A stretch of 64,000 nt of DNA, taken from a bacterium. Lineage in GTDB: Bacteria > Patescibacteriota > Patescibacteriia > JACQRZ01. The notes under the pieces are model-generated. The model had not been told where the DNA came from. It saw only the letters and a program-made list of their open reading frames with translations, and made no database searches. Made by a program: the position numbers and the translations under genes. Below are positions 1 to 15,683 of this stretch, in pieces. Position 1 is the first letter of the stretch, and each line of letters begins with the position of its first letter. The stretch is taken from the NCBI GenBank assembly GCA_030688365.1, contig JAUYIE010000021.1:9866-73865 (forward strand). Direction: 5' to 3'.

Positions 1-402
1 ACACCGACTGTATCAATTGGATCCACAGACTTGCACTCCATGGCGCAGTTGTATCTGGCAAATCCTACTTCGCGGTTCACAACATTTGTTTCTATTGCCA
101 AGACAATAGACACACCACGATTGAATGGCAGTGAGTGGACGGCTTTAGTACCGGGATTACAAGGACAAACCCTCCATGGACTCATGAAGACTATTTATCA
201 AGGAGTCGTCAATACATATACTGCAAAAAAAATGCCATTTGTGCAGATTGACATGAAAGAATGTTCTGCATTTACACTGGGCGCGTTTATGCAGATGAAG
301 ATGTTGGAAGTGATGTATTGCGCGCATGTACTCGGGGTCAATGCATTTGATCAGCCCCATGTAGAGATCTACAAAAAAGAAGTGAGAAAGTTATTGAAAT
401 AA
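1..402 (+). CDS. pgi: Glucose-6-phosphate isomerase, C-terminal fragment. The frame is open to the window edge, so the gene is 5'-truncated.
   Basis: The C-terminal motif 'GVNAFDQPHVEIYKK' matches the conserved PGI C-terminus (GVNxFDQPGVE). The frame runs from nt 1 with no stop. Confidence 0.7.
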   Translation, partial: TPTVSIGSTDLHSMAQLYLANPTSRFTTFVSIAKTIDTPRLNGSEWTALVPGLQGQTLHGLMKTIYQGVVNTYTAKKMPFVQIDMKECSAFTLGAFMQMKMLEVMYCAHVLGVNAFDQPHVEIYKKEVRKLLK

Positions 403-1095: not shown

Positions 1096-1992
1096 GTGAT
1101 GGATTATGTATTATACATCGTTAGTACAATATTGTTATATATGAGTGTGAATCGTACAAAAAAATCTGTCAAATTGTTACCCCGACGTATACGGCAATTT
1201 CAACAGATTATTTGGGATTATTATGAAAAAAATGGTAGACATGATCTTCCGTGGCGTCTTACCGATGATACATATACCATTTTTATTTCAGAAATAATGT
1301 TGCAACAAACGCAAGTACCGCGAGTGTTGATAAAATATCCCGAGTTTTTAGGAGAATTTCCTGATATAAACACACTCGCGCGAGCATCACTTGCAAACAT
1401 CCTCAACGTGTGGCAAGGGATGGGATACAACCGCAGAGCGATTTTTTTAAAAAAAGCGGCACGCGAAATCATTGAGAAGTACGACGGAAACATACCCAAC
1501 AATGTTATTGATCTAGAGAGCTTACCTGGTATCGGCATACACACTGCCGGTGCTATCATGGCTTTTGCGTTTAACGCCCCTGTTGTTTTTATTGAAACCA
1601 ACATACGTCGGACGTTTATTCATCATTTTTTTCAAGAAGATGCTGATGTATCTGATACAGAGATACTTCCGTTGGTGCGTGCGACACTGCCGGTGGATCG
1701 CCCGCGAGATTGGTACAATGCATTGATGGATTATGGCTCGTATGTGGCTAAAAATGTCGCCAATCCCAATCACAAGAGTCGGCATTATAAAAAACAGAGT
1801 TCGTTTGATACGTCCGTGCGTAAAGTGCGAGGTGTGATAATCAACACTCTTACCAGATCAAAGGATGGAATAATATTCAACAAAGAATTGGATGCACTAC
1901 CCTTTGAGCGTGAACGGATTAATATGGCGCTTGCAGGTTTGATGGCCGAAGATTTTTTGAAGAAAAAAAGGAATGGATATGGTATTTCATAA
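1096..1992 (+). CDS. HhH-GPD superfamily DNA glycosylase of the MutY / endonuclease III family. The C-terminal 4Fe-4S cysteine cluster is absent.
   Basis: Motifs 'GRHDLPWR', 'IFISEIMLQQTQV' and 'LPGIGIHTAGAIMAFAF' (HhH-GPD) are present. The C-terminal half has no Cys. The true start may be the ATG at 1141. Confidence 0.7.
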   Translation: MMDYVLYIVSTILLYMSVNRTKKSVKLLPRRIRQFQQIIWDYYEKNGRHDLPWRLTDDTYTIFISEIMLQQTQVPRVLIKYPEFLGEFPDINTLARASLANILNVWQGMGYNRRAIFLKKAAREIIEKYDGNIPNNVIDLESLPGIGIHTAGAIMAFAFNAPVVFIETNIRRTFIHHFFQEDADVSDTEILPLVRATLPVDRPRDWYNALMDYGSYVAKNVANPNHKSRHYKKQSSFDTSVRKVRGVIINTLTRSKDGIIFNKELDALPFERERINMALAGLMAEDFLKKKRNGYGIS

Positions 1993-2055: not shown

Positions 2056-2631
2056 ATGTATACTCCCTACAGTCAAAAAGCATCAATCATGATTATATCT
2101 CTTGTCGGATGTATCGCATTATGGATTTTGGTAGTGGCCTTTGCAAATATGAACTATGAGATTGCTATGATAGAAAGAGATGTTGCGGAGTTAAAAGCAA
2201 ACAGATTGGCAATGGAAACAACGCAACAGTACACAAATATTTCCAATAAGTTTTCGTTTGAATATCCTTTGAAATGGTATATCAATGATAATATCAAGCA
2301 GGATGGCATGTTGTTATTGGATCCTGACGCGACGTTTGCAAATCGTGCACCTATTCAAATAAGTGTGCAATCAGCCACAAAGGCAAAAGCATTGATGGAG
2401 ACAATTGATGGAGACAAGGCCGTTGCAGACGAATCTGTTATGCTTGGCACTACACCGGCAATACAGGTCATGTATGACGAAAGTGGTGAAGAATCCGTAG
2501 GAACGGCATATTTTATTGATCTTGATGCGAAAAATACCGTCGTGATAGAGGTAGTCAGTGGTAATGGTCCTGCAGATCCTGCTCAAATGGCATTAGAAAC
2601 GATATTGAAAACATTTACCATCCAGCAATAA
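2056..2631 (+). CDS. Membrane-anchored hypothetical protein, possibly a PsbP-like periplasmic domain.
   Basis: There is an N-terminal TM helix. 'FSFEYPLKW' resembles the PsbP-like GxSFxYPxxW motif. Confidence 0.45.
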   Translation: MYTPYSQKASIMIISLVGCIALWILVVAFANMNYEIAMIERDVAELKANRLAMETTQQYTNISNKFSFEYPLKWYINDNIKQDGMLLLDPDATFANRAPIQISVQSATKAKALMETIDGDKAVADESVMLGTTPAIQVMYDESGEESVGTAYFIDLDAKNTVVIEVVSGNGPADPAQMALETILKTFTIQQ

Positions 2632-2632
2632 T

Positions 2633-2974
2633 ATGAAGGCAAAAAAGACAGCTTTGGTTGGTGATTCATCTGTACCACTCGCTCATGAAGAAGGAACACG
2701 CATTATCTTTGCAACCGTTCATGATATTGTTTTTAGTGCGACTGAAAGTCCTCAACCCGGCATTACCGTGGTGTTGGAGTCGCAAGATACTGACAATGAT
2801 CAATTATTGTGCGTGCGAACAAACGAAGCGGGTAAGCTTCCTATTTCTCACGACCTACCTGACGGCGCATATATGATGACCATGTTGTATACTGATCGCG
2901 TGGAACGTCAGCCAATCTTTATTGGACAACCAAAAGGAGGCAAACCCAAAGGGAGTGTGAGGAAATTGGCGTAG
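2633..2974 (+). CDS. Hypothetical protein
   Basis: ORF of 113 aa whose ATG overlaps the stop of the upstream gene (TAATATG). It appears translationally coupled. Confidence 0.4.
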   Translation: MKAKKTALVGDSSVPLAHEEGTRIIFATVHDIVFSATESPQPGITVVLESQDTDNDQLLCVRTNEAGKLPISHDLPDGAYMMTMLYTDRVERQPIFIGQPKGGKPKGSVRKLA

Positions 2975-3043
2975 GGAACTTTATAAAGTGCCGTTATTTT
3001 GCGTAACTTTATAAAATTTGGTATTGCGAAAAAATGATGTAAT

Positions 3044-4072
3044 ATGTCGGATATGGAACAACCAAACTCACAAATCGTCATATATAAAGATCAGGATGGA
3101 AACATTAAGATTGATGTTCGTTTTGATGGTGATACCGTGTGGTTGACGCAAAATGCCATGGCAGAGCTTTTTCAGACAACAAAGCAAAATGTCAGTCAGC
3201 ATATCAAAAATATCACAGAAGATGGAGAATTATCAGAAAATTCAACTGTAAAGAATTTCTTTACAGTTCAAAAAGAAGGCGAAAGAGAGGTTGGGCGGGA
3301 TGTGGAATTCTACAATCTAGACCTCATTATCGCTGTTGGGTACCGAGTAAAGTCATCACAAGGCACCGCATTTCGCAGGTGGGCAACGGAACGGCTTTCA
3401 GAGTACATCGTCAAAGGCTTTGTGATAGACAGTGAACGGTTAAAGAATCCTGATCTTCCTTTTGACTATTTTGAGGAGCTTGAACGGACTATCGCGGATA
3501 TTCGTACCAGCGAAAAGAGATTTTATCGCAAAATAACTGATATCTACGCGACGAGTGTAGATTATGACCCCACAAACGATCAAAGTATTCTGTTTTTTCA
3601 AACAGTGCAGAACAAAGTCCATTATGCTGTGACCGGTAGTACCGCAGCAGAAATTGTCGTGGGTAGGATAGACAGTGGTAAAAAGAATCTAGGACTGGAA
3701 TCTTTTAGAGGTACCAAGCCTACAAAAGAAGAAGCCATTATTGCAAAAAATTATTATAACAAGGAAGAGCTAGCACAACTCAATGCACTGGTTGAACAGT
3801 ATTTGATATTCGCAACAGAACAAGCTCGTCGCAGGGTGCCCATGACAATGAATGATTGGGTAGAAAAACTGCATGGATTTTTGACTATCAATGATAGGAA
3901 TATCTTGCATGATGCGGGCAAGATTTCTCACGAATTGATGGTAGAAATTGCTGGGGCGAAATTTGATGAGTATAAGCATATGGAAGCAAGGCAAGATGTT
4001 GATTTTGACGAGGTCGCACTAAAGGCGATTGAGAGTGCAAGAGGGAGAGATATTTCCAAAAAGATTATATGA
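3044..4072 (+). CDS. RhuM-family protein (virulence protein RhuM-like)
   Basis: The core 'NLDLIIAVGYRVKSSQGTAFRRWATERL' is characteristic of the RhuM family (PF13310-like). Confidence 0.65.
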   Translation: MSDMEQPNSQIVIYKDQDGNIKIDVRFDGDTVWLTQNAMAELFQTTKQNVSQHIKNITEDGELSENSTVKNFFTVQKEGEREVGRDVEFYNLDLIIAVGYRVKSSQGTAFRRWATERLSEYIVKGFVIDSERLKNPDLPFDYFEELERTIADIRTSEKRFYRKITDIYATSVDYDPTNDQSILFFQTVQNKVHYAVTGSTAAEIVVGRIDSGKKNLGLESFRGTKPTKEEAIIAKNYYNKEELAQLNALVEQYLIFATEQARRRVPMTMNDWVEKLHGFLTINDRNILHDAGKISHELMVEIAGAKFDEYKHMEARQDVDFDEVALKAIESARGRDISKKII

Positions 4073-4485
4073 AAAAAGGACTTATCGTACATGCGCTTCT
4101 CTACAACCAAAAACACGAGGTGCTTTTGATTCGCAGATCTTTGGTAGACGATGTCTTGCCCGGTATGTGGGATATCCCAGGAGGAACGCTTGAAGACGGA
4201 GAGGATTTACAAAATGGCGCTGTCCGAGAGGTAAAAGAGGAAACGGGCTTAGATATCAAAAATCTTAATTTGTTTCACTACACTTCAAACGTTGACCAGA
4301 CAAAGGATATTGAGTTTATTCGGCTTATTTTTATCGGTCAGTGTGATGATACCGAGATAGTGTTAAATCCAGAGGATCATGATGAATATCGCTGGGTGTC
4401 GTTGGATAAACCACTTGAAGATATTGCGATGGTGGAGTATTTGCCTGATCTTATTCAAATGCTTCAAACAAGGGACATCAATTGA
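4069..4485 (+). CDS. NUDIX hydrolase
   Basis: Nudix box 'GGTLEDGEDLQNGAVREVKEETGL' (Gx5Ex7REVxEExGx). Its start overlaps the RhuM stop (ATGA). Confidence 0.75.
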   Translation: MKKGLIVHALLYNQKHEVLLIRRSLVDDVLPGMWDIPGGTLEDGEDLQNGAVREVKEETGLDIKNLNLFHYTSNVDQTKDIEFIRLIFIGQCDDTEIVLNPEDHDEYRWVSLDKPLEDIAMVEYLPDLIQMLQTRDIN

Positions 4486-4497
4486 TCAGGTATTATC

Positions 4498-5118
4498 CTA
4501 CAAAATAATCACCTCGCCATCTGCAAGCGTTTTAAATGGCATGTTATTTTTTGTCATATATTCAACGGTTTTTTGTGCGCTTTCGGATTCTATATGATCT
4601 GAATTGTAATGCGGGATTATGGAATACGGGAGAATATGTAGACCACCCCAAATAACTTCCAAGTTGTCCCCATAGGGTTTTGCTGTCGGATCATCCATGA
4701 GTTCCATGCCATGTAACGTTGGTGCCAATACACAGATGCCAGCGCTATATCCTCCATACAGCAGATCATCTCTGGTGGCTAATTTTTTTATAATCACATC
4801 AAAACCGCTCATCCTCATCGCTTGTCTCAAGACGAAAATGTTGCCTCCGCGCACCCAGATGACGCCAGATTCAGAAAGTTTTTTTTCTAATTCAGTCGGG
4901 TTATCAAAATAATCGCGTAGATCAACGAGCTCAACATCTAGGCCGAGCGTTGTAAGTTGATTCATATCAGATTGTTCACTGATTTTGCGTCTTTCTAGAC
5001 CATCTGAAAAATCAAGAGCGTTGGGGATATAAGCAGTTTTTTTGTTCACTGCAGACAGCAGTGTTTTCAGCTTTTCAATCTCGTTTCCCAGTTTGTATGA
5101 GGATAGGTAGAGTTTCAT
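4498..5118 (-). CDS. Peptidase family S51 (dipeptidase E / cyanophycinase-like)
   Basis: 'YGGYSAGICVLAPTL' carries a GxSAG nucleophile elbow. 'IWVRGGNIFVLRQAMRMSGF' is typical of S51. Confidence 0.6.
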   Translation of the reverse strand: MKLYLSSYKLGNEIEKLKTLLSAVNKKTAYIPNALDFSDGLERRKISEQSDMNQLTTLGLDVELVDLRDYFDNPTELEKKLSESGVIWVRGGNIFVLRQAMRMSGFDVIIKKLATRDDLLYGGYSAGICVLAPTLHGMELMDDPTAKPYGDNLEVIWGGLHILPYSIIPHYNSDHIESESAQKTVEYMTKNNMPFKTLADGEVIIL

Positions 5119-5122
5119 AGAA

Positions 5123-5872
5123 TTATTTTCTCAACAAATCAGAAAGTGGTAAGAATTTTTTCTCTTTTGCAATCAAAATGTGATGAAACGTTCCCTTTGC
5201 CCAAAAAACCTTATACGCATTTGCCATTTTCTTGGAAGAAATAATGCGGTACGTCTCATCAATGATTTCGATCGCGCAACAGTTATCAATCGCAACTGCT
5301 ATTCCCTCTGTCTTTTTCATCATTTTCTTCAGGTCAGATTTACGGTCTTTTTCAAAATCATAATGAGGACATAAAAGGGCAGAGACCAAGTTTAATCCTG
5401 AAACTTTTATCAATGGGGCGTTCGGGTTTTTCATTTTTCGAGAATCAGAGTTGCCGTACTTGAACCAGCAAATCGCGCCCGCGCTCAATCCAGAAAGCAC
5501 GATTCCTTTGTCGTATGCCTGCCTTAAGAGTACAACCACGCCGTATTTTTTCCACGCCTGCATCATTTTCAACGTATCTCCACCCCCAACGTAGATAATA
5601 TCAGCAGACAAAATTTTATTCTTTATTTCTTGTTGTGTGAGTGCGCCCTTCAGAAGATACAACACTTCTGTTCTACACCCCAGCTTTTTACCAAAATAGT
5701 TTTTGACTGTTTCAAAATAGGATTCACTGTCCCCGCTGGCGGTAGGAATAAAAAGCAGAACAGGATTTTTCTTGCCAGTCAGTTTGATAATTTCTTTATC
5801 AATTTTTGTTGTCTCAATGGGATAGCCTGGTCTGCCTATATCCCCACCACCGATGGCAATGATTTTCTTCAT
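5123..5872 (-). CDS. Peptidase family S51 (dipeptidase E / cyanophycinase-like), second tandem copy
   Basis: Motifs 'IIAIGGGD', 'IIYVGGGDTLKMMQAW' and 'LSGLSAGAICWF' are present. It is a paralog of the adjacent gene. Confidence 0.65.
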   Translation of the reverse strand: MKKIIAIGGGDIGRPGYPIETTKIDKEIIKLTGKKNPVLLFIPTASGDSESYFETVKNYFGKKLGCRTEVLYLLKGALTQQEIKNKILSADIIYVGGGDTLKMMQAWKKYGVVVLLRQAYDKGIVLSGLSAGAICWFKYGNSDSRKMKNPNAPLIKVSGLNLVSALLCPHYDFEKDRKSDLKKMMKKTEGIAVAIDNCCAIEIIDETYRIISSKKMANAYKVFWAKGTFHHILIAKEKKFLPLSDLLRK

Positions 5873-5950
5873 ATGGTGTACTTTTTAAAGCGTTTATTAT
5901 GATATAGTGTAGTAGTAATGACTTATTAATACAAATAGAAAGGAGGAGAA

Positions 5951-6871
5951 ATGCTAGACACCCATACAATAGACCAAATAATACACCAAATTGAAGGATT
6001 GCTTGGTATTACCATCGTTGAAAGGGAGCTGTCAGATTTGCAAGGTACTGATGGCCATGTATTTATCGTTACTGACAAGGATGGGACTGAATATGTTATA
6101 AAATACAGCCCCAATGCAATAAATGACGTGGTCGCTCTTAATCTGATCAAAGAAAAAAATCTTACCATCCCAGTGCCGAAGTTATTCGGATATTTTTCTT
6201 TCAAAGGAAAAACGGTTGTTGTTTTAGAAAAAATTACGTTTCCTTTATTGGATCAAACATCAAGGGAAAGATACCACCTGTATATCAAATCGATGATAGA
6301 CCATTTACAAAAAATACATACGGTCAAATCAAAGATTGCCGGGTTTGTCTCAAATCAAGAAAAACGGATGTCTTGGCAACAGTTTTTGTTAAATATGTAT
6401 ACAGAAAAGAGTCCATTTTTTGATTGGAGAGAGATAGTGTCTCGTGATGGTGTAGATACAAAACTCGTGCAAAAGGCACTTACCGCCGTAGTAAAAAAGA
6501 TTGAAAATCAAAAATTTCTTGACCCGACATATTCTCTATTACATACGGATTTTAATCAAAAAAATCTTTTTGTAGACCAAAAATTACATGCAATTTCCTC
6601 TATCACTGATTGGAGTGAAGCCATGTTCGGGGATCCGCTATATGATTTTGTGAGGATTAGGTTGTATATTTTTCATTTTAATTTGAAGCATGGTTCACGT
6701 AAAACATACTTTGACCTATTGCATCTCACCAAAGAAGAAAAAGAACGAGAGGAACTATATTTTGTCATCCAGATTTTAAACTACATAGGATGGTATTCGG
6801 AAGTAAAAAATGATTTTAATACCTCACGATTGGCGATGCATCAAGAGTTTTTGAAAAATTATCCGTGGTAG
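5951..6871 (+). CDS. Phosphotransferase enzyme family (APH-like small-molecule kinase)
   Basis: The Brenner-like motif 'LLHTDFNQKNLFVD' (HxDxxxxN) and the activation segment 'ITDWSEAMFGDPLYDF' (the DxG/DFG equivalent of APH kinases) are present. Confidence 0.65.
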   Translation: MLDTHTIDQIIHQIEGLLGITIVERELSDLQGTDGHVFIVTDKDGTEYVIKYSPNAINDVVALNLIKEKNLTIPVPKLFGYFSFKGKTVVVLEKITFPLLDQTSRERYHLYIKSMIDHLQKIHTVKSKIAGFVSNQEKRMSWQQFLLNMYTEKSPFFDWREIVSRDGVDTKLVQKALTAVVKKIENQKFLDPTYSLLHTDFNQKNLFVDQKLHAISSITDWSEAMFGDPLYDFVRIRLYIFHFNLKHGSRKTYFDLLHLTKEEKEREELYFVIQILNYIGWYSEVKNDFNTSRLAMHQEFLKNYPW

Positions 6872-6874
6872 TCT

Positions 6875-7213
6875 ATGACACATCATAAACTCAAAAACGA
6901 CAAGTACGTAAAAGCTCGCGATGGCAATTCGTATTTTTTAGATCTCTACTGCAGTCGGTGTGAGCAATTTCTTGTTCTCTATCAAAAGGACGGGCAAGGT
7001 GCATTGATACGGCTGTATCTTGATCGATTTTTTGCCCCGAAAGAATTAGCAGTATTACAGTACGATTGTAAAGAAAAGAAGGATATGCCTAATCTCAAAT
7101 GTTCAAAATGTGGCGTACTTATTGCCACACCAATGATGTATGAGTCTGAACAGAGACCGGCATTTCGTTTGATTCGCGGTGCATTCGTAAAGAAAATGAC
7201 CATTGACAAATAA
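6875..7213 (+). CDS. Zinc-ribbon hypothetical protein
   Basis: Two CxxC pairs (CSRCEQF ... CSKCGV). It starts 3 nt after the APH-like gene. Confidence 0.4.
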   Translation: MTHHKLKNDKYVKARDGNSYFLDLYCSRCEQFLVLYQKDGQGALIRLYLDRFFAPKELAVLQYDCKEKKDMPNLKCSKCGVLIATPMMYESEQRPAFRLIRGAFVKKMTIDK

Positions 7214-7258
7214 GATAGTGAATATTAGGCTTGTGTGTAGTTTAACTTTCTTGTATTT

Positions 7259-7846
7259 ATGATATTTAGAGGAGTAGTCAGTCAGGATGGAATACGATGT
7301 GATGTACACCATATGGATGTAGATCATTTTAATGATATCCCCGACAATTTAAAATTGAAGGCACATGCCGTATGCTTATATAATGGTAAAATATTGTTAG
7401 TCCATCATCCAGAATGGGGTATCTGGAGTATTCCTGGTGGCACTCGTGAGCGGGGGGAATCAATAGAAGAAACCTTAGTAAGGGAAATATTAGAGGAAGC
7501 GAATTGTAAGGTGATTGATTGTCAACCCATAGCTTTTCAAAAAGTTGTTAATCCTAGCGATGAAACACTGTATTATCGATTACAATATTTCTGTAATGTT
7601 ATACCTGTGGAAGATTTTAAGGAAGATCCTGCCGGAAATATAGATAAAATCGCATGGATACAACCACGTGATTTTGAATTATATATCGAAAATAAGGAGT
7701 TTAAAATAATAGTGATCAGACGTGCGCTTGAATTATTAAAAAATATGAAGATCAAAAAGCTCGATAAAAATATTATCAGAGTTATTGCTAACGAGAAAGA
7801 CTATATCCTTGCAGAACCGATGGATTTTAGAAAAGAGTTTAGTTAA
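7259..7846 (+). CDS. NUDIX hydrolase, second copy
   Basis: Nudix box 'GGTRERGESIEETLVREILEEANCKV'. Confidence 0.7.
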   Translation: MIFRGVVSQDGIRCDVHHMDVDHFNDIPDNLKLKAHAVCLYNGKILLVHHPEWGIWSIPGGTRERGESIEETLVREILEEANCKVIDCQPIAFQKVVNPSDETLYYRLQYFCNVIPVEDFKEDPAGNIDKIAWIQPRDFELYIENKEFKIIVIRRALELLKNMKIKKLDKNIIRVIANEKDYILAEPMDFRKEFS

Positions 7847-8561
7847 AATTTGCTATAGACCATTTTTTGGGAAGTGGTCTTGTTTTTGTGTAAATGTATT
7901 TTATTAAAGCCGATAAAATTTTTATTTTGTCTTGCCTATCGGTGGCAAGATAAAAATGATTAACGAGATTTCCAAATCTTTTATCAATATCATTAAGTCG
8001 TGCGTGTAATTCCTTTGGTTGTCTAAGAAAATCTCCATTTATTTTTAGAAATAGTTCCATAATATTATTTATCAAAAGTTGGCTGTCTACGCCAAACGCC
8101 ACAGAGTCTTGATTTTTTGCGTCTCGTCGTACTTCACCCAAGAAATCGTCTATAGAATATTTATGCATTAAGATTTCCTCTTTTGTATATTTTGTCTTGA
8201 GATTGAGATTTGACTTTGCAATTGCTTGTATTTTCGCAATAGAGGCGCTCCTTTGAAAAAGTATTGCACTATGTGCCAGCATGTGAGAAGTATTTCTCTT
8301 TAAGGCATTTTTATCTTCATTCAAATATTTGTTTGTTTCATTTATAGGTTCAATGATTATATCAATTGGAATGCCGTACTTTATCAGACCTATTCGAGCA
8401 AATTTCGCAAGTTTACGTACTATTATATAGAAATCAATATCAGAATATTCGTCGGAGGTATCTCGTGCCGCAGATCCAAATACCATAATACCCAAGACAT
8501 TTTTGTCTGGTTTGTATTGTGTGACTATCTCGTCGTAGATCTTTTGAACAATTTTTTGCAT
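7839..8561 (-). CDS. Nucleotidyltransferase of the Pol-beta superfamily (ANT/KNTase/Lnu-like, or a minimal NTase)
   Basis: The N-terminal 'GIMVFGSAARDTSDEYSDIDFYIIV' carries the GS...DxD motif of the NTase fold. The C-terminal ~140 aa is helical. Confidence 0.65.
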   Translation of the reverse strand: MQKIVQKIYDEIVTQYKPDKNVLGIMVFGSAARDTSDEYSDIDFYIIVRKLAKFARIGLIKYGIPIDIIIEPINETNKYLNEDKNALKRNTSHMLAHSAILFQRSASIAKIQAIAKSNLNLKTKYTKEEILMHKYSIDDFLGEVRRDAKNQDSVAFGVDSQLLINNIMELFLKINGDFLRQPKELHARLNDIDKRFGNLVNHFYLATDRQDKIKILSALIKYIYTKTRPLPKKWSIANFN

Positions 8562-8599
8562 AAAAAAAAGATTAAGGTTAGTTTAACACTGAACCTTAA
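8562..8599 (-). terminator. Intrinsic terminator downstream of the small-peptide ORF / rSAM operon on the minus strand
   Basis: Stem TTAAGGTT (8572-8579) pairs with AACCTTAA (8592-8599) around a 12-nt loop. On the minus transcript it is followed by a U-run of 8-9 (the A-run at 8562-8570). Confidence 0.55.
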
Positions 8600-8614
8600 T
8601 CCTGTTAAGCCATT

Positions 8615-8689
8615 TTACTTGCAGTTACTTGGTTTCTTGCAAGTTTTTCCTGGCTTTATCACTGGTAGTGATATAACAATTATTTCCAT
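8615..8689 (-). CDS. 24-aa small peptide, MEIIVISLPVIKPGKTCKKPSNCK. It is a candidate precursor or substrate peptide of the adjacent rSAM/SPASM enzyme.
   Basis: Hand translation of the minus strand. The Shine-Dalgarno AAAGGAGGTG ends 6 nt before the ATG (8687-8689). The ORF begins 12 nt after the rSAM stop codon (8702-8704) and an intrinsic terminator follows. It is under 60 aa and so is absent from the ORF track. Confidence 0.5.
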   Translation of the reverse strand: MEIIVISLPVIKPGKTCKKPSNCK

Positions 8690-8701
8690 TTTGCACCTCC
8701 T

Positions 8702-10123
8702 TTATATAGATTGAGGAAGCGTTACCTCGATAGACGCCTCCAATAATTGATCTTTTAATATTTCTTTAGTTATATCACGATAAAAATTGCACATTCGTTC
8801 AATTTTTGTCGTACCGGTAGCTTTTGCAAATTCATGAGTTATTTTGCAGCCTCCACCACAGTGACCTTCAATCATGCATCCCTTGCACATTTCCATAACT
8901 CCAGTGAGATGATCCTCAACCAACTTATAATATGGACTTCCGAACGAATAAAAAGACTGTATTGTAGCAATGTCTCCAATCTGATCCACACTATAGCCAC
9001 AGCTATAGATTTTCCCCGATGGAGCAACGCATATACTATTACCCTCGATCGCACCACAGAATGTCACACGTTTATCAAGCGGAGAGTCACTTAAGTTTTC
9101 TGCAGGACGAGACCAAAATCCAGGAACATCGACCCCTAATCGTTTTCCATATCTACGCATGTTCATTAATTTGGAAATGATCTCATATATAGGAATACTT
9201 ACCATACCTATGACATCTATGTCAATTCTTACATTGGTCATGCCGTGTGTAACTGCCCAATCAATTAGAGACTCATTCAGTTCATGAAAATTGTTTTCCG
9301 TAATCGTTACCGCAATGCCATTGAGTGGATATCCTACTCTTTTTAGGGTTTGAAACCCATCAGTGATCTCACCGTAGGTACCACGCCCTGACTTTGTCAT
9401 TCTGACGCTATCGTTCCCTTTTTGTAACCCATCAAGACTTGACGCAATATCAACATTATATTGCTTCAGGGTTTCGGCAATTTCTTTTGTCATCAGAGAT
9501 GCATTTGTATTTATGGAGAAGTGTATATCAAATGTGCCACTATACGCTTCATCGCAGTATTCAATAATTTGTTTTATTACCTGCCAGTTGAGAAGTGGTT
9601 CACCTCCTCCAAAGTTGATTTCCGCAACATGTTTGTTGTGTATTTTAAGGATATCTAAGTATTTATCCACAGTCTTTTTTGCCAAATGGAATGACATGAA
9701 TTTTTTAGGACTGTTGATTCGATCAGAGATTTCCAGGTTGTTGAAATGTATACAGTAGGTGCAACGAAAGTTGCAGGATTCGCACATAATCAGCTCAAGA
9801 TATTCTACCAGGGATCCATTAGTAATATCTATTTTTCTGCGTTGCATCGTTTCTACAAGTAGTTTTCTCTCATCAAGTGTTTTTGGTTTGAGAAAATAAC
9901 AACGAACCAATTCGTCAATTGCCTCCTGTCCCGCGTTTGTTTCATGTGTGTCATACCACGAAAGAAGTGTTTTTGGTTCCAAAAAATAGTTGAGAAATTC
10001 TAATGTTGCAGAGGAAACAATTTTTGGATATCCAAATAAAGAATGCCAAATTACGAAAACACCATCGTTCTCAATCTGTTGAATGAATGCCGATCTAACT
10101 AATACATTATCGTTGTCTACCAT
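8702..10123 (-). CDS. Radical SAM / SPASM-domain enzyme (peptide-modifying maturase-like, anSME family). It has a ~125-aa N-terminal extension that may be an RRE-like domain.
   Basis: 'CNFRCTYC' (CxxxCxxC) lies at about residue 126. The C-terminal SPASM is 'CGAIEGNSICV...GKIYSC' plus 'CKGCMIEGHCGGGC' (exact Cx2Cx5Cx3C), with a later Cys in 'ERMCNF'. The Shine-Dalgarno AAGGAAAAAA lies upstream of the ATG. Confidence 0.85.
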   Translation of the reverse strand: MVDNDNVLVRSAFIQQIENDGVFVIWHSLFGYPKIVSSATLEFLNYFLEPKTLLSWYDTHETNAGQEAIDELVRCYFLKPKTLDERKLLVETMQRRKIDITNGSLVEYLELIMCESCNFRCTYCIHFNNLEISDRINSPKKFMSFHLAKKTVDKYLDILKIHNKHVAEINFGGGEPLLNWQVIKQIIEYCDEAYSGTFDIHFSINTNASLMTKEIAETLKQYNVDIASSLDGLQKGNDSVRMTKSGRGTYGEITDGFQTLKRVGYPLNGIAVTITENNFHELNESLIDWAVTHGMTNVRIDIDVIGMVSIPIYEIISKLMNMRRYGKRLGVDVPGFWSRPAENLSDSPLDKRVTFCGAIEGNSICVAPSGKIYSCGYSVDQIGDIATIQSFYSFGSPYYKLVEDHLTGVMEMCKGCMIEGHCGGGCKITHEFAKATGTTKIERMCNFYRDITKEILKDQLLEASIEVTLPQSI

Positions 10124-10176
10124 TGTATTTTTTCCTTTCTTTGTTTTTTGTCAATGTCCGATAAGTTGGTATTTAC

Positions 10177-10194
10177 CATATTCTTTGGTATATT
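10177..10194. promoter_or_regulatory. Perfect palindrome CCGTGTA-aata-TACACGG upstream of the rSAM gene. It is a candidate operator.
   Basis: 7-bp inverted repeat with a 4-nt spacer. It sits just upstream of a TTGCAA-17-TAAATA minus-strand promoter-like site. Confidence 0.4.
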
Positions 10195-10404
10195 GCAACC
10201 CGTGTAAATATACACGGTCTGTTGGATACAATTGTAATCGAGGCATAAAAATATAAATATACTGTCTAGTTTGTGGTAGTCAAAAATAGGTCAGGCTTGA
10301 TAATATAATATTATCTCCATATTTTTGGGCGAAAAAAGATGTAAAGTGTGTGGATAACAAATGACCTAATAAGGCGTTTTTCGGTGAAAAACCTTTGTTT
10401 TACA

Positions 10405-10480
10405 AAAATTGACATGGCATTGACAAACCCATGTTCTTGTGATACGAGAAGGTGTAGGATTATATATAAGGTATATAAAG
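10405..10480 (+). promoter_or_regulatory. AT-rich promoter-like region for the methyltransferase gene
   Basis: Two TTGACA hexamers (10409-10414 and 10420-10425) and TATATA/TATAAA boxes (10461-10479). The exact -35/-10 pairing is ambiguous. Confidence 0.3.
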
Positions 10481-10518
10481 GGTTAGACCTTTTAAAATTA
10501 AAAAAGGAGCATTGGCTA

Positions 10519-11646
10519 ATGTCAAATTTAGAAAAAAAATTAGATACAAAACAAAACATCGAAAGCACTGCACGGATAAATTCCATTGCATTGTATGTGC
10601 CTGAAAAAAGCACAAGCGAATTATTGGATGGCGTAGAAGTTACTGTATATGGTAAAAATGGATTTGAGTATAAAAATCCACTATTCTGGTTCGTTTATGA
10701 CCGCATCGTAGGAAAATGTCTTGAAAATGTGGTTGAACGCAAAACAAGGAACATTCTTGGTAAATATCTCAGTGCTGATGAAAAGAAGACATTAGTTCAC
10801 TTGGATACTAGAACTACAACATTGGGACCATATCGTAGAAATTTTGGATTGAAGCAAGACTGGGCAGAGATATTTTTGCTCGAAACTACTTTGTTTAATA
10901 GAGGTTCACCGGTTATGAAACACCTCTGTGAGAATGTGGCGAATGCGCCCGGTCTTGATGATGTGTATAATAACAATGGTGGTTTTGCATGGAATGGACT
11001 TAAAATATTTCCATTGTCCGGCGAGCCAGACCTATTGTCAAATATATACATGGACAAGCCTGAGGCGCAGGGTACCAGAAATCGTTATTACATGCTTTTA
11101 AGATTATATGACCAGTTTGGGGGTGGTAAAACACTATCAATCGCTTGCGGGTCTGCACAGCCATTAATTCATGCTGTGAATAGATTTGTAAGTGAAAAAC
11201 ACTATAATTTAGATAACACAACATTAGTTTTGACTGACCAAGATGCTCGTAGTTTAGATTTGGCTAGATTAAGGGCCAAACAGGCAAATATTGAAGATAG
11301 GGTTCAATTCGTCCAATCTTCGTATCTGGAACTAGGCGATGCATTAGGAAATGAAAAATTTGATATTGTTGAGGCATGTGGTATAGCCGACTATCTGCCG
11401 GACAAATATTTCAAATCTTTAGTGGAAAAGGCAATGAGTTATTTGAACGTTGGTGGAAAGTTACTCATTTCTAATATGATGCCCGGGGTGTGGTCTTCTT
11501 TTATCAGAAGAACTTACAACTGGGAGATGATTTATAGAACAACACATCAGGTTGCAGAATTATTGAAAGAATCCGGGCAGAAAGATATACGCATTTATGT
11601 TGAACCGTGGAAGGTTCACATGATTGCGGTCGTTACAAAACATTAA
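10519..11646 (+). CDS. Class I SAM-dependent methyltransferase, O-methyltransferase-like
   Basis: Motif I-like 'LSIACGSAQPLIHAV', 'LVLTDQDARSLDLARL', 'FDIVEACGIADYLPD' and 'LNVGGKLLISNM'. The start is chosen at the ATG preceded by AAAAAGGAG. The ORF track extends it to 10348. Confidence 0.65.
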   Translation: MSNLEKKLDTKQNIESTARINSIALYVPEKSTSELLDGVEVTVYGKNGFEYKNPLFWFVYDRIVGKCLENVVERKTRNILGKYLSADEKKTLVHLDTRTTTLGPYRRNFGLKQDWAEIFLLETTLFNRGSPVMKHLCENVANAPGLDDVYNNNGGFAWNGLKIFPLSGEPDLLSNIYMDKPEAQGTRNRYYMLLRLYDQFGGGKTLSIACGSAQPLIHAVNRFVSEKHYNLDNTTLVLTDQDARSLDLARLRAKQANIEDRVQFVQSSYLELGDALGNEKFDIVEACGIADYLPDKYFKSLVEKAMSYLNVGGKLLISNMMPGVWSSFIRRTYNWEMIYRTTHQVAELLKESGQKDIRIYVEPWKVHMIAVVTKH

Positions 11647-11721: not shown

Positions 11722-13884
11722 ATGACATACTATTCCATTACCTCACTAATAAATTTTCTAGTCAGTTTTGGACTCGGTTTTTTTATTTTGACAAGGAGAG
11801 AAAAGACTCGATTACACAAATTAGTTGCATTTTTTTGTTTTGCTATATTTTTTTGGAGTTTCTTTTATTTTTTATGGCAAATTACTGAAACAAAAGAATA
11901 TGCACTTTGGTTTACACGTTTATTAATGGTGGGTGCTATTCTTGCCCCCGTTGCATATTGTAAGGTTGTTCTTGCATTTCTGGATTTAGAACAAGTACAT
12001 GCACGTTTGGTGAGAGTGTCATATATTTTAACTGGATTTTTTCTCATTTTACTACCAACAAAATTAATGGTACTTAAAATAGAGGCCGTACCAGGGTTTG
12101 AATTTTGGCCAAAACCAGGCTTATTTTTTATTCCTTTTTTAGTATTTTTTTTCTCATTAACATTTTTTAGTATTTATTTGACAGCCAAATCAGTATTGAA
12201 CGAAAAATCATCATACAAAAGTCGCCAAGCTAGATTAATGTTACTAGGAATAGCATTGACATTTATTGGGGGATCCACAAATTATTTTCTTTGGTTTGAT
12301 ATTAACATACCACCTTATGGTAACATTTTGGCTTGTAGTTATGTTATATTGACAACATATGCAATTTTGCGCCATCAGCTTATGGATATCAAGGTTGTTT
12401 TACGTAAGTATTCTGTATATTTCGTTTCCCTTTTTTCCGTCATCGCGCTTGCGGGATTGTTTCAATATGGATATAAAACGATCTTGGGTATCAGCAATTT
12501 TTATATCGATATCATCATCACCGGTCTTGCGGTGAGCATCTTTCCGGTGTTACGGTCGTATTATTATCGTTTTGCCAATACCTATCTTTTCACTTCGCTG
12601 TATGACACGAAGCAGGTTATTTCCAAACTAAGCGAAAAACTTCGCTCTACGCTGGAGACCGAGGAAATCTATCGCACGCTTTCCGACACTATCCAAAACG
12701 CGCTTCATATACGCAGTATTGGTCTTTTGACATACGACCATGACAAAGAAGAATACAGCATAGCCCAATGTGAAAGAGAAGAGACATGCAATCCGGTGGT
12801 GCAAAAATTAAATAAAAAATTTGTGGATTATTTGGTGACGCATGATCGGCCGATCCTCACTGCTGAAATAGATGATCGGTTTGCGGTGTTGAAGCGATTA
12901 TTGGCGCCCAGTACCGAAGTTCTTGTTCCTCTCAACCTCAAAGGCAAGCACATCGGGCTCATGCTGATAGGCCAAAAAGAGGCGAGTGATTCGTTTGATG
13001 ATGAAGATGTGAGTCTTCTTAAGATTGTGGGGTCGCAGACCGCTATTGCGCTGGAAAACGCGTTGTTGTATGGAGAAGCGCAACATTTCAATGAAGTGCT
13101 TAAGCAAAGGATCGCGCGTGCGACAAAGCAGTTGCGTTCGCAGAATGAAAAACTCAAAGAGCTGGACGAGATGAAAACCGAGTTCATCTCCATCGCATCG
13201 CACCAGCTTCGTACGCCGTTGACCGCGACAAAGTGGGCGTTGGATTTTTTGCTCAAGGGCGCGGATGGCAAGATAAATCCAAAACAGCGCGAGTCGCTGT
13301 CGGAACTTTCGGTCATGAATGTCCGCCTTATCACCTTGGTCAATGAGCTTCTCAATATTTCTCGTATTGACGAGGGACGCGTGAAGGTTGAGCCAAAGCC
13401 GACAAGTATCACAAAGGTGGTCAAAGAGATTTTGGCGGAGTTCATGCCTATCATTCGCAAAAAAGGTATTATTTTGCAAGAGCATTATGATACGGTGCCA
13501 CTCATCAAGCTGGATGCGGGTGTCATCGGCAAGGCGCTTTCCAATGTGTTGTCAAACGGCATAAAGTACAATACCGACGGCAAACATTTGTGGGTGGAGG
13601 TAGCCAAACACAAAGACGACGTCGCGATCATCGTGAAAGATGAAGGGATCGGCATCCCAACCAAAGAGCAGGATCATCTGTTCCAGAAGTTTTATCGCGC
13701 GTCAAACGCCATGACGTCAAACACGGAAGGGACGGGCTTTGGGCTGTATATCGCCAAATCCGCCATCGAGCTGTCAGGCGGAAGCATTTCTTTTGAATCA
13801 AAAGAGGGGGTGGGTACGACATTTACTGTCTTCGTGCCTCTCAAAGGCTCCCGCGCACGCAAAGGGGAGAAGAGTTTGGCATGA
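11722..13884 (+). CDS. Sensor histidine kinase with an N-terminal multi-TM domain, a GAF-like domain, HisKA and HATPase_c
   Basis: About 7 N-terminal TM helices. H-box 'FISIASHQLRTPLTA'. N/G boxes 'SNGIKYN' and 'GTGFGLYIAKS'. Confidence 0.85.
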   Translation: MTYYSITSLINFLVSFGLGFFILTRREKTRLHKLVAFFCFAIFFWSFFYFLWQITETKEYALWFTRLLMVGAILAPVAYCKVVLAFLDLEQVHARLVRVSYILTGFFLILLPTKLMVLKIEAVPGFEFWPKPGLFFIPFLVFFFSLTFFSIYLTAKSVLNEKSSYKSRQARLMLLGIALTFIGGSTNYFLWFDINIPPYGNILACSYVILTTYAILRHQLMDIKVVLRKYSVYFVSLFSVIALAGLFQYGYKTILGISNFYIDIIITGLAVSIFPVLRSYYYRFANTYLFTSLYDTKQVISKLSEKLRSTLETEEIYRTLSDTIQNALHIRSIGLLTYDHDKEEYSIAQCEREETCNPVVQKLNKKFVDYLVTHDRPILTAEIDDRFAVLKRLLAPSTEVLVPLNLKGKHIGLMLIGQKEASDSFDDEDVSLLKIVGSQTAIALENALLYGEAQHFNEVLKQRIARATKQLRSQNEKLKELDEMKTEFISIASHQLRTPLTATKWALDFLLKGADGKINPKQRESLSELSVMNVRLITLVNELLNISRIDEGRVKVEPKPTSITKVVKEILAEFMPIIRKKGIILQEHYDTVPLIKLDAGVIGKALSNVLSNGIKYNTDGKHLWVEVAKHKDDVAIIVKDEGIGIPTKEQDHLFQKFYRASNAMTSNTEGTGFGLYIAKSAIELSGGSISFESKEGVGTTFTVFVPLKGSRARKGEKSLA

Positions 13885-13995
13885 GACATAGATCATTACT
13901 GGTCTAGAAAAAGAGTCAATTATTCACAAAAGCTCTATTTATGGGCTTTTTTAGTACATAACCCTTTAAATATACTGATTTTCCTACCATAACCA

Positions 13996-14024
13996 TTGAC
14001 TTTTTTACTGAAATATAGTATAAT
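13996..14024 (+). promoter_or_regulatory. Sigma70-like promoter TTGACT-17-TATAAT for the 14076 gene
   Basis: TTGACT is at 13996-14001, followed by a 17-nt spacer and TATAAT at 14019-14024. Confidence 0.5.
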
Positions 14025-14075
14025 GATGCTCAACGATCTAATTATCACTAAAAGATCAATTTAAGCTTTATTTAT

Positions 14076-15596
14076 ATGTATTTCGCTAGAAATATGAAAC
14101 GGACAATCAGTTTTATGGGAGTTCTCATGCTCGGCGTGATTTTTGTCGGTTTGACGACTTCACAAGCACAAGCGTATGAATATCCATACGGTTATGGGTA
14201 TCAATATCCTGCGCCAAAAACACCTAATGCGGGTAAAATCCTGTTACAGGTGCAAGATAGAGGTCAGGCATGGTATGTAAATCCTGCCGATCAACGACGT
14301 TACTATTTGGGACGCCCGTCTGACGCTTTTGAAGTTATGAAGAAGCTTGGTATCGGTATTACCAATGCAAACCTTCGAAAGTTTCCTGTAGCAGCATTTA
14401 ATTATTATGGTCTTCCTGATACTGATCGAGATGGTTTGTATGACGATTTTGAAAAAGTATATGGCACTGATTGGACCAACCCAGATACCGACTATGATGG
14501 GTATACTGACTTAGCGGAATTGCGTAATGGATACAATCCATTTGGTGCAGGATTTGCCGGTTATGATATGGCTTTTGCCAAAGCAAACAAAGGAAAGATT
14601 TTTCTTCAAGTAGAAAACGGTGGAGCTGCGTGGTACATCAACCCTGCTGATTCAAAAGCGTATTACTTGGGACGACCGGGCGATGCATTTAACGTAATGC
14701 GGTTCTTGGGAGTTGGTGCGACCAACGATACAATCAATCGTATTCCACGAGGTGATCAGTATCAAGCATATCCGGTATGTGGTGCATACGGACAAGCGGC
14801 ATGTTATAATCCGACACAGCCAACGTATTATCCAACACAACCAGCGCCAAGCTATCCATCACAAACATCCAATCGTTATTACGTGCGTTTGTTCAATGTG
14901 GATAACGTCGCATATGCCATCATCAATGGAAACAAGACATATACAGCTTCCTATGGTGCGGACAATTTGATTGACGTGACTGACTATATCCATTCTGGCA
15001 ACAACACCATACAGTTTAAACTGTACAATGATACAGCTGGCTACACATGGGGTTTTCAGATCAAACGCAATGATCAAGTGTTGTTTTCTGAAATCGCCGG
15101 ATTGGTAGGCGTAACGGGTGCAAATGGCAATGATGCCAAACATACCTTTCAAGATGTGTATAACAAGACAGTTATACTCAACGAATCAGGTGTTTCTAGC
15201 ATCAACGGCTTTCAACAACCAGTTCCTGTGGCACCAACACCAAGTCACTGGTACCTTCGCGTATTTAACGCTGATGATCGTGGTTTGGCTGTCATCAACA
15301 ACAAATATAGTTTGAACACCAGTTTTGACCAAGATACCGGTTTTGTAGACATCAGTAATTACTTATTGACTTCCGGTAACAACACGATTGATCTACGATC
15401 ATACAATGATGGTGGGGCATATGCGTGGGGTTTCCAGCTTAAGAAAGATAGTACAATGATTTTTGATGATGTTGCAGGCGACTCCGGTACATACGGTGCA
15501 CACGGTAATGAATATTCACGCGAGTATCAGTATTCTTACAACAAAACATTGACGATTAATACCAACGGTGTAGTGAGTGTCCGTGATAATAGATAA
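14076..15596 (+). CDS. Secreted repeat protein with thrombospondin-type-3-like Ca-binding motifs and two pairs of internally duplicated domains
   Basis: Signal peptide present. 'DTDRDGLYDD...NPDTDYDGYTD' resembles TSP3 repeats. Paired domains: 'GKILLQVQDRGQAWYVNPAD..' with 'GKIFLQVENGGAAWYINPAD..', and 'RYYVRLFNVDN..' with 'HWYLRVFNADD..'. Confidence 0.6.
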   Translation: MYFARNMKRTISFMGVLMLGVIFVGLTTSQAQAYEYPYGYGYQYPAPKTPNAGKILLQVQDRGQAWYVNPADQRRYYLGRPSDAFEVMKKLGIGITNANLRKFPVAAFNYYGLPDTDRDGLYDDFEKVYGTDWTNPDTDYDGYTDLAELRNGYNPFGAGFAGYDMAFAKANKGKIFLQVENGGAAWYINPADSKAYYLGRPGDAFNVMRFLGVGATNDTINRIPRGDQYQAYPVCGAYGQAACYNPTQPTYYPTQPAPSYPSQTSNRYYVRLFNVDNVAYAIINGNKTYTASYGADNLIDVTDYIHSGNNTIQFKLYNDTAGYTWGFQIKRNDQVLFSEIAGLVGVTGANGNDAKHTFQDVYNKTVILNESGVSSINGFQQPVPVAPTPSHWYLRVFNADDRGLAVINNKYSLNTSFDQDTGFVDISNYLLTSGNNTIDLRSYNDGGAYAWGFQLKKDSTMIFDDVAGDSGTYGAHGNEYSREYQYSYNKTLTINTNGVVSVRDNR

Positions 15597-15638
15597 GATT
15601 TCTCTTTTCCAAATCATTCAGGATTTTGGAAGTAAAAA

Positions 15639-15675
15639 GGCCGTCGTCGCTTCAAGCGAAATGACGGCTTTTTTA
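15639..15675 (+). terminator. Intrinsic terminator after the 14076 gene
   Basis: GCCGTC (15640-45) pairs with GACGGC (15663-68), followed by TTTTTT. Confidence 0.55.
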
Positions 15676-15683
15676 ATACACAC

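Follow-up and report, generated by a model that had tools for sequence, protein, structure and literature searches.

An apparent enzyme island in a Patescibacteria chromosome as a probable patchwork with a RiPP-like cassette

Positions 3044–8561 of the 64,000-nucleotide stretch of DNA analysed here (the window) carry eight densely packed genes, for a RhuM-family protein, two NUDIX hydrolases (NUDIX1 and NUDIX2), two tandem S51 peptidases, an APH-fold kinase, a Zn-ribbon protein and a Pol-beta nucleotidyltransferase (NTase), which an earlier note had read as one accessory-looking island. We estimate a probability of roughly 0.7 that four independent units make up this stretch, as a patchwork rather than one system, in a chromosome of the candidate phyla radiation (CPR)/Patescibacteria. 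The most interesting object of the region is a cassette composed of a radical SAM (rSAM)/SPASM gene, a short peptide gene, a hairpin and the NTase gene. The NTase is the third gene of this cassette, which resembles clusters for peptides that are synthesized ribosomally and modified post-translationally (RiPPs) and, at 7839–10123, extends past the flagged coordinates. This assignment follows from related loci, where an rSAM gene lies upstream of the NTase in 18 of 30 cases and the peptide gene adjoins it in 31.

Gene order, composition and neighbourhoods

All eight open reading frames (ORFs) of the earlier note are present at their positions, and the domain calls hold in Pfam, NCBIfam and PADLOC scans. 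The premise of a reduced-genome organism is also reasonable, as nearly all homologs of the kinase, of the Zn-ribbon protein and of the NTase derive from metagenome-assembled genomes (MAGs) of CPR/Patescibacteria. The genes are tightly packed, with intergenic gaps of 3 to 78 nt and two overlaps, one of 4 nt between RhuM and NUDIX1 and a convergent one of 8 nt between NUDIX2 and the NTase. The ORF map divides the flagged genes among four transcription units with opposing orientations. One unit of the proposed patchwork would be a variable 3.9-kb block at ~2975–6874, flanked by backbone genes that lie side by side in a relative. Another would comprise the Zn-ribbon protein and NUDIX2, co-transcribed here with the kinase, and a third would be the cassette, with the NTase as its last gene.

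The variable block emerges from comparison with related contigs and loci fetched from metagenomes, which carry L numbers (L001 is a copy of the window). Contig L254, found via its Zn-ribbon homolog, contains MutY (62% identity), u191-like (55%), u113-like (58–66%) and Zn-ribbon (64%) genes in the same order as the window. Its u113 ortholog ends at the same C-terminus as the window gene and is directly followed by the Zn-ribbon gene, and farther along the contig lies an ortholog of the window's 7TM-GAF histidine kinase (41% over 625 aa, E 1.6e-147). In the window, 3.9 kb holding RhuM, NUDIX1, both S51 peptidases and the APH kinase separate the orthologs of u113 and Zn-ribbon, and since these genes are adjacent in L254, ~2975–6874 is variable between related genomes. 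L254 has no RhuM, S51, kinase, rSAM or NTase gene. Identity between its two NUDIX genes and those of the window does not exceed 30%, which implies that the NUDIX content of the region also varies between relatives. The accessory character claimed for the whole stretch is thus retained for ~2975–6874, with variability seen against one relative, L254, and is lost for the rest of the span, where the Zn-ribbon gene is a chromosomal backbone gene and the NTase belongs to a conserved cassette. The flanks of the stretch are ordinary chromosomal genes.

Composition does not set the stretch apart. The genes at 3044–5872 have a GC content of 0.40–0.41, typical of the window, and their codon usage matches the rest of it. 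The genes at 5951–11646 have a third-position GC of 0.32 versus 0.40, a difference that is not significant against length-matched window blocks. The codon usage of neither segment falls outside such blocks, and we dropped the attempt to draw island boundaries from composition. No tRNA or Rfam elements and no convincing att-like or flanking direct repeats were found, and Pfam and related scans of the window genes detected no integrase domain in any gene. The flagged stretch does not qualify as a mobile genomic island.

Nor do the genes travel together. We sampled 33 kinase loci, ~49 NTase loci, 7 contexts of the Zn-ribbon protein and 80 viral RhuM loci, and in none of these neighbourhoods is the combination of eight genes reproduced; the kinase and the NTase never co-occur in the loci of either; and, beyond the kinase itself, the genes of the variable block do not recur in the 33 kinase loci, save for a weak S51 match in L012. 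The idea of one functional island is not borne out by these neighbourhoods.

The radical SAM, peptide and nucleotidyltransferase cassette

In the window, the 140-nt gap between the rSAM and NTase genes holds a 24-codon minus-strand ORF (8689 to 8615), MEIIVISLPVIKPGKTCKKPSNCK, preceded by a strong Shine-Dalgarno sequence, AAAGGAGG (8696–8703), that overlaps the rSAM stop codon. Over all loci the peptides are 24–38 aa long, follow the consensus M(Q)KAQ.KQRP.LKVK.LPKLKVL.TCQRPSNCH and end in TCxxPSNC[H/K]. A six-frame search for the motif C..P[ST]NC.-stop finds it in 31 distinct NTase loci, always adjoining the NTase; elsewhere in the 1.98 Mb of fetched DNA it occurs in the window and its copy L001 and nowhere else. 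In 30 of these 31 loci, including those without an adjacent rSAM gene, the peptide gene immediately precedes the NTase on the same strand. At the core residues, which are invariant, the codons differ synonymously (TGT/TGC, CCC/CCA/CCG, AGC/AGT/TCT for Ser, AAC/AAT), and all three stop codons are used, which argues for selection on the translated peptide. None of the peptides matched an NCBIfam model.

Of the 23 distinct spacers that separate the peptide stop codon from the NTase ATG, 20 fold into a hairpin with a U tract. Seven of the 10 pairs in its consensus stem show compensatory double changes across 20 aligned sequences. The loop is itself conserved in sequence, as GTGTTATACT in the family and GTGTTAAACT in the window (8581–8590). 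It resembles an extended −10 element (TGnTAnAnT) and lies ~25–30 nt before the start of the NTase, for which no Shine-Dalgarno sequence is obvious; the terminator loop may contain a promoter or a site bound by a protein.

Orthologs of the window rSAM (E 1e-170 to 1e-207) directly precede the NTase, on the same strand, in the 18 loci mentioned above out of 30 with enough flank, and directly follow it in 2 more; rSAM is adjacent in 20 of 31 informative loci. From end to end the protein can be aligned to TigE (8VPO; E 2.7e-34), including the region of TigE that forms its RiPP recognition element (RRE), and it also shows homology to the maturase CteB. It scores below the threshold of every curated rSAM family, the best being PapB (NF047865) with 136 bits versus 340; one ortholog reaches 143 bits. 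It cannot be placed among the PapB ranthipeptide maturases on that score, nor among the cyclopropyl synthases (TigE/TvgB), where GYW is expected and the window protein has GFW at residues ~344–346 (window ~9100–9110). In TigE the tyrosine of GYW ligates auxiliary cluster I, and the Y339F mutation abolishes activity (PMC10878394). Because this essential tyrosine is replaced, the window enzyme probably performs different chemistry from TigE, its closest solved relative. Judged by sequence, a predicted maturase with an RRE-homologous region beside a conserved short peptide has the make-up of an rSAM/SPASM RiPP cluster.

The cassette shares with known rSAM/SPASM RiPP systems (the TigE/TvgB cyclopropyl synthases, the PapB ranthipeptide and the CteB SCIFF thioether systems) the RRE-rSAM-SPASM architecture and a short precursor-like peptide with a conserved, Cys-containing C-terminal core. 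It differs from them in that it falls in no curated family, in its motif TCxxPSNC[H/K], which matches no NCBIfam model, and in having an ANT(4')-fold NTase but neither a protease nor an exporter in the vicinity. Pyrroloquinoline quinone (PQQ; PqqA/PqqE) and mycofactocin (MftA/MftC) offer another comparison: they too are compact pairs of an rSAM/SPASM enzyme and a tiny peptide with a conserved extreme C-terminus, lack an exporter, lie among housekeeping genes and are broadly conserved within their lineages. This likeness is an analogy, as the window protein is no member of these families by sequence (61 bits versus 265 for the mycofactocin rSAM) and an NTase stands here in place of a peptidase, flavoenzyme or glycosyltransferase.

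The call of an ANT-type fold for the NTase was right. Its AlphaFold2 (AF2) model (pLDDT 90.2) can be superposed along its entire length on ANT(4')/kanamycin nucleotidyltransferase (Foldseek, 6un8/1kny; TM 0.65–0.68, E 6.5e-9, 12–14% identity), and G29, S30, D41 and D43 are invariant, so the model points to a two-domain fold like that of kanamycin nucleotidyltransferase (KNTase) with a GS...DxD motif. The family has more than 209 clusters, nearly all of 237–241 aa and 52–60% identical, spread over Parcu-, Ryan-, Portnoy-, Azam-, Brenner-, Wolfe-, Magasanik- and Peregrinibacteria. In domain structure it is like ANT(4')-Ia and Lnu/LinB, with a Pol-beta NTase domain, a helical domain and the G-S...D-x-D motif. 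Unlike them, it is tied to a radical SAM enzyme and a short peptide and conserved across CPR classes, which suggests that its substrate is not an antibiotic. Its scores against the NCBIfam resistance models of ANT and Lnu are 15–24 bits versus cut-offs of 340–540 (23.9 versus 350, 24.1 versus 540, 17.5 versus 525 and 15.2 versus 340 over the ANT(4'), Lnu and ANT(9) families). With MntA it scores 23.4 bits (cut-off 60) and with HalB 16.3 (cut-off 190); a weak PADLOC match to PDC-S09 (E 4e-7) and a weak likeness to the fold of Hailong HalB complete the picture. The NTase had been paired with the APH kinase, yet its partners, judged by adjacency in the NTase loci, are the rSAM and the small peptide.

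In the mechanism that we propose, the rSAM would cross-link or otherwise modify the Cys-containing C-terminal core of the peptide, the hairpin would keep peptide expression above enzyme expression, and the NTase would O-nucleotidylylate the (modified) peptide, or a small molecule derived from it, on a hydroxyl group. Tentatively, the three components together could form an undescribed CPR-wide pathway to a cross-linked, O-nucleotidylylated peptide, representing either a new RiPP class or a nucleotide-tagged cofactor or signal comparable to PQQ or mycofactocin. The cofactor or signal option is raised by the housekeeping-like distribution of the cassette and by its lack of an exporter or protease. 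Our literature searches on CPR rSAM RiPPs and on NTase-tailored RiPPs found nothing that matches.

Genes around the cassette in other genomes are mostly housekeeping genes. The window methyltransferase (10348–11646) was considered as a cassette member and rejected, having no homolog in any NTase locus; unrelated methyltransferases make up 4 of 107 cassette neighbours. A 7TM-type histidine kinase, a single-domain response regulator or both lie near the NTase or cassette in ~5 of 19 long loci (L096, L116, L118, L122, L132). In L118 the NTase stands between the two, and the window has the same neighbours (11722–16091). This may reflect regulatory linkage or chance, since these histidine kinases are multi-copy. 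In two Azambacteria loci (L092/L093, 1–9037), the rSAM-peptide-NTase cassette lies amid four radical SAM genes, small ORFs and a methyltransferase gene, which together may make up a larger peptide-modification locus.

The kinase, Zn-ribbon, NUDIX, RhuM and peptidase genes

The kinase scores 46 bits against PF01636 (cut-off 23.2) and has 40 homologous clusters among 5.8 billion proteins. Its sequence places it in the APH/ELK superfamily, with the ATP-binding Lys, the HxDxxxxN loop and the Mg-binding Asp all there; K51, H198-x-D200-x4-N205 and D220 are invariant in 37 sequences. Full-length relatives come solely from CPR-labelled MAGs and three labelled Gammaproteobacteria. In a profile search the nearest solved relatives are the hygromycin-B 4-O-kinase APH(4)-Ia (E 5e-14), APH(2'')-Id (full length, E 1e-7) and macrolide phosphotransferases. 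A grouping with homoserine or choline kinases, which the earlier note had named as counter-evidence to its reading, is thus not what we see. Membership of a resistance family is likewise not supported despite these antibiotic kinases, as the NCBIfam scores for APH and Mph families are 17–27 bits versus cut-offs of 205–725 (best scores 27.3 versus 725, 27.2 versus 205, 20 versus 600 and 19.6 versus 500 over the APH(3'), APH(2''), APH(4) and Mph families). The window kinase shares its fold and catalytic residues with APH(4)-Ia, APH(2'')-Id and Mph; it differs from them in lying far below those cut-offs, in belonging to a CPR-restricted family and in adjoining NUDIX, Ham1, HD and SDR genes rather than resistance or mobile genes.

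The context of the kinase differs in all 33 loci, none of which has the Zn-ribbon gene beside the kinase. Of the 118 genes lying no more than two positions from kinase homologs, NUDIX (8) and SDR (7) are the commonest, and HD, CYTH and His_Phos also occur. Ham1/ITPase, HD/YfbR-like 5'-nucleotidase and 2H-phosphoesterase genes are further examples of neighbours. The order is kinase-Ham1-NUDIX in L031 and HD/YfbR-like-NUDIX-kinase-NDT-like-NUDIX in L035, and NUDIX2-like genes adjoin or lie near kinase homologs in L025, L031 and L035. We rejected a conserved kinase/Zn-ribbon/NUDIX operon, given the 0 of 33 loci with an adjacent Zn-ribbon gene; the link between kinase and NUDIX alone recurs, loosely. 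The recurrent proximity to nucleotide-sanitising genes suggests a role for kinase and NUDIX in nucleotide salvage or sanitation and not in drug resistance; they would act by phosphorylation and pyrophosphohydrolysis on a metabolite that resembles a nucleoside, nucleotide or sugar phosphate. Kinase homologs near MutY (L002) or near a histidine kinase and an rSAM (L016) were not used as evidence of ancestral synteny, as one such coincidence is expected by chance over ~31 loci with 20-kb windows; the L016 rSAM is not an ortholog of the window rSAM (E 8e-16). In L005 (3260–9197) and L016 (9195–16723), kinase homologs, one of them the closest (60% identity), stand beside the same gene cluster, which consists of a class I/II aminotransferase, a Cys/Met-type pyridoxal phosphate (PLP) enzyme, an AMP-binding ligase, a gene of ~220–225 aa and an SDR. 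The cluster, which the window lacks, resembles a small-molecule pathway.

The Zn-ribbon protein has more than 210 clusters at 45–70% identity, in CPR, a Woesearchaeote and an Anaerolineae MAG, and belongs to no Pfam family. Its AF2 model (pLDDT 91.5) gives weak matches to eS27, cereblon CULT, YPEL5, Mis18 and MsrB (E at least 0.014, TM 0.34–0.43), which makes a beta-tent/Yippee-like fold possible. Like cereblon CULT, YPEL5, Mis18, MsrB and the RIG-I C-terminal domain, it is a small, mostly-beta domain with two CxxC pairs ~47 residues apart; with matches this weak, membership of these families is not established. A NUDIX gene follows it immediately in 3 of 7 contexts. GTP cyclohydrolase II/orotidine monophosphate (OMP) decarboxylase/guanylate kinase genes follow in 2 of 7 (directly in L088, after one gene in L255), and an AIRS-domain gene occurs in 1 of 7. 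In L088 (5001–7609) and L255 (4001–6607) the Zn-ribbon gene heads a same-strand run of nucleotide genes, with Maf near in L088 and thymidylate synthase in L255, which points to a link to nucleotide metabolism.

Both NUDIX proteins are predicted family members by Pfam and by the NUDIX box GX5EX7REUXEEXGU. NUDIX1 scores 87.6 bits (cut-off 21.1) with its canonical box GGTLEDGEDLQNGAVREVKEETGL intact. NUDIX2 scores 48.7 bits against the same cut-off, and its box reads REILEEANC, with the final G replaced by N. NUDIX2 would be the last gene of a kinase/Zn-ribbon/NUDIX transcription unit; a terminator-like hairpin lies at 7857–7880, after the gene. NUDIX1, which would be co-transcribed with RhuM, matches PADLOC PDC-S07 (E 1.5e-16).

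RhuM matches PF13310 over its full length (339.9 bits, cut-off 33.7) and PADLOC PDC-S05 over residues 4–330 (E 1e-132). Its family is large, with 30,137 representative clusters and more than 519 matches on viral contigs. One PDC-S05 member is reported to be protective in E. coli against T7, T5 and T4, and to lower the plating of T7 and T5 ~1000-fold (bioRxiv 10.1101/2024.09.26.614923). From its sequence RhuM is a candidate stand-alone defence gene associated with phages and mobile genetic elements (MGEs). It resembles other PDC-S05 proteins in its full-length match, in the stand-alone organisation usual for the family and in having frequent relatives on viral contigs; it differs in residing in a CPR genome and in the NUDIX gene that overlaps its stop codon. 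A two-gene RhuM-NUDIX1 defence system was rejected. A first scan with a single protein found nothing, and in the 80 best viral loci of the more than 519, neither a NUDIX gene nor any other gene of the supposed island lies within 3 kb of RhuM (0 of 80).

The two tandem S51 peptidases are 23% identical to each other, and at this divergence are not a recent duplication. Both score above the Pfam cut-off and have PDB sequence matches, and SAG and PHY motifs were recognized in both by eye. Equivalog scores for PepE and cyanophycinase are 36–47 bits versus cut-offs of 127–156, which would place the pair at the family level only. As Asp-dipeptidase/cyanophycinase-like peptidases they would probably serve peptide scavenging. 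In L012 (1017–3248) an S51 peptidase lies two genes upstream of the kinase homolog on the same strand, the sole other co-occurrence of S51 and kinase in the 33 loci.

The coordinates of all features are collected in Table 1. To the right, the rSAM/SPASM and methyltransferase genes are followed in order by the 7TM-GAF histidine kinase, a response regulator, PilB, TGT and RecQ. Elsewhere in the window, a 1281-aa ORF at 47391–51236 has a second-position GC of 0.535 versus ~0.35 elsewhere, a hint of biased composition and possibly of a surface or repeat protein.

Table 1. Features of the flagged stretch and its flanks, in window positions.
Feature	Position	Strand	Assignment or remark
3' end of Pgi (glucose-6-phosphate isomerase C-terminal part)	1–402		NF010697, E 2e-15; window starts inside gene
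MutY-like glycosylase	1096–1992	+	TIGR01084, E 6e-52
Gene without assignment (u191)	2056–2631	+	Left backbone, ortholog in L254
Gene without assignment (u113)	2633–2974	+	Left backbone, ortholog in L254
RhuM	3044–4072	+	PF13310, E 1e-101
NUDIX1	4069–4485	+	PF00293, E 9e-25; canonical NUDIX box
Peptidase_S51, 206 aa, PepE/Lmo0363-like	4498–5118	-	Pfam, E 5e-21
Peptidase_S51, 249 aa, cyanophycinase-like	5123–5872	-	Pfam, E 1.5e-48
APH-fold kinase	5951–6871	+	PF01636, E 7e-12
Zn-ribbon CxxC...CxxC protein, 112 aa	6875–7213	+	No family above threshold
NUDIX2	7259–7846	+	PF00293, E 1e-12
Polbeta/NTP_transf_2 NTase	7839–8561	-	E 4e-7
Terminator-like hairpin and U tract	8562–8603	-	Between peptide gene and NTase start codon
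24-aa peptide gene, candidate RiPP precursor	8615–8689	-	Six-frame motif, synonymous codon variation
Radical SAM/SPASM maturase, predicted	8702–10123	-	Pfam Radical_SAM, E 4e-20
Methyltransferase	10348–11646		Right of rSAM/SPASM gene
7TM-GAF histidine kinase	11722–13884	+	Pfam; right backbone

Alternative explanations and significance

If the APH kinase and the ANT-type NTase worked together, the stretch could be an antibiotic- or xenobiotic-inactivation island of an episymbiont exposed to aminoglycosides, lincosamides and macrolides. The solved relatives of the kinase, the superposition of the NTase on ANT(4') and the intact catalytic residues of both enzymes speak for this, whereas the resistance scores of both fall far below the cut-offs, the two genes never co-occur and the kinase keeps company with nucleotide-sanitising enzymes. 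The NTase family, uniform in length, similar CPR-wide and tied to rSAM and peptide, also lacks the sporadic pattern of a resistance gene. We find no evidence for such a joint function and regard it as very unlikely. A nucleotide-signal phage-defence island, in which the NTase would make a signal, the NUDIX proteins degrade it and RhuM or others act as effectors, is also quite improbable. It would draw on the PDC-S05, PDC-S07 and weak PDC-S09 matches, on the phage protection reported for one PDC-S05 member and on the weak resemblance of the NTase to HalB. PADLOC, however, finds no CBASS, Pycsar, Thoeris or Hailong component, its sole hits being PDC-type single-gene candidates, and no cyclase/effector-type signalling system. 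HEPN or effector genes are absent from the window genes at 3044–11646 (Pfam, PADLOC) and from the 25 most frequent Pfam families of cassette neighbours elsewhere. The 80 viral RhuM loci lack a NUDIX or NTase neighbour, the conserved partners of the NTase are rSAM and peptide, and the genes lie on four transcription units. Of the defence idea, what survives is RhuM as a candidate. It is unlikely, too, that nothing here is accessory, the whole stretch being ordinary core content of this CPR clade from which L254 has lost genes. The codon usage of 3044–6871, indistinguishable from the rest of the window, the lack of an integrase, tRNA or flanking repeat and the wide occurrence of the Zn-ribbon and NTase families in CPR would fit such an origin. 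Against it, the kinase family is rare, with different neighbours in each genome, RhuM is of a kind typically carried by phages and MGEs, L254 has the orthologous flanks without the block, and of the block's genes only the kinase, plus the weak S51 match, recurs in the 33 kinase loci.

For the cassette the main rival is attenuation, in which the small ORF would be a cis-acting leader (arrest) peptide that, with the terminator, attenuates an ANT-like drug-modifying gene, as in erm/cat-type inducible resistance. The position of the peptide gene just before the NTase in 30 of 31 loci, also where rSAM is not adjacent, the conserved hairpin and U tract between them and the strictly conserved residues at the very C-terminus, beside the stop codon, are what such a leader would show. 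It is weakened by the gene order in L122, where the peptide gene lies downstream of the NTase on the opposite strand, by that in L124 and L125 (peptide-NTase-rSAM), and by the association with an rSAM/SPASM protein with an RRE-homologous N-terminus in 20 of 31 informative loci. We identified no alternative anti-terminator structure, and the two invariant Cys are typical of rSAM/SPASM substrates. We consider attenuation improbable.

Some observations do count against the patchwork and RiPP-like readings that we favour. L254 is the sole syntenic relative found and is fairly distant, so that the apparent insert could equally be a loss there; several separate events behind the block at 2975–6874 are also possible, and the RhuM-NUDIX1 overlap may represent a local functional pairing. 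The closest solved relatives of the kinase are antibiotic kinases, and a drug-modifying role is possible. As to the cassette, 12 of the 30 NTase loci with adequate flank lack an upstream rSAM (2 of these have it downstream), which means that the NTase-peptide pair can exist without an adjacent rSAM. The 107 genes neighbouring cassettes show no enrichment of proteases, exporters or transporters, which is atypical for secreted RiPPs. Finally, the link between the NTase and the peptide is one of gene context, and a biochemical one would be putative.

Reading APH and ANT as a resistance pair, or NUDIX and a minimal NTase as signalling defence, would mis-annotate this CPR genome. The patchwork offers instead three things that can be tested: RhuM as a defence candidate in a genome of episymbiont type, a kinase family confined to CPR and a three-gene peptide-modification cassette. 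The kinase family bears on the handling of salvaged nucleotides in organisms without de novo nucleotide synthesis. The cassette, with its three genes, is compact and conserved across many CPR classes, and its reconstitution in E. coli is feasible. If the tentative CPR-wide pathway is real, the NTase flagged as ANT-type would be a peptide-tailoring enzyme, a use of the KNTase fold of which we found no description. Should the NTase tailor the peptide, nucleotidylylation by a KNTase fold would be added to RiPP chemistry, and there would be a conserved peptide product from a lineage in which natural products have scarcely been sought.

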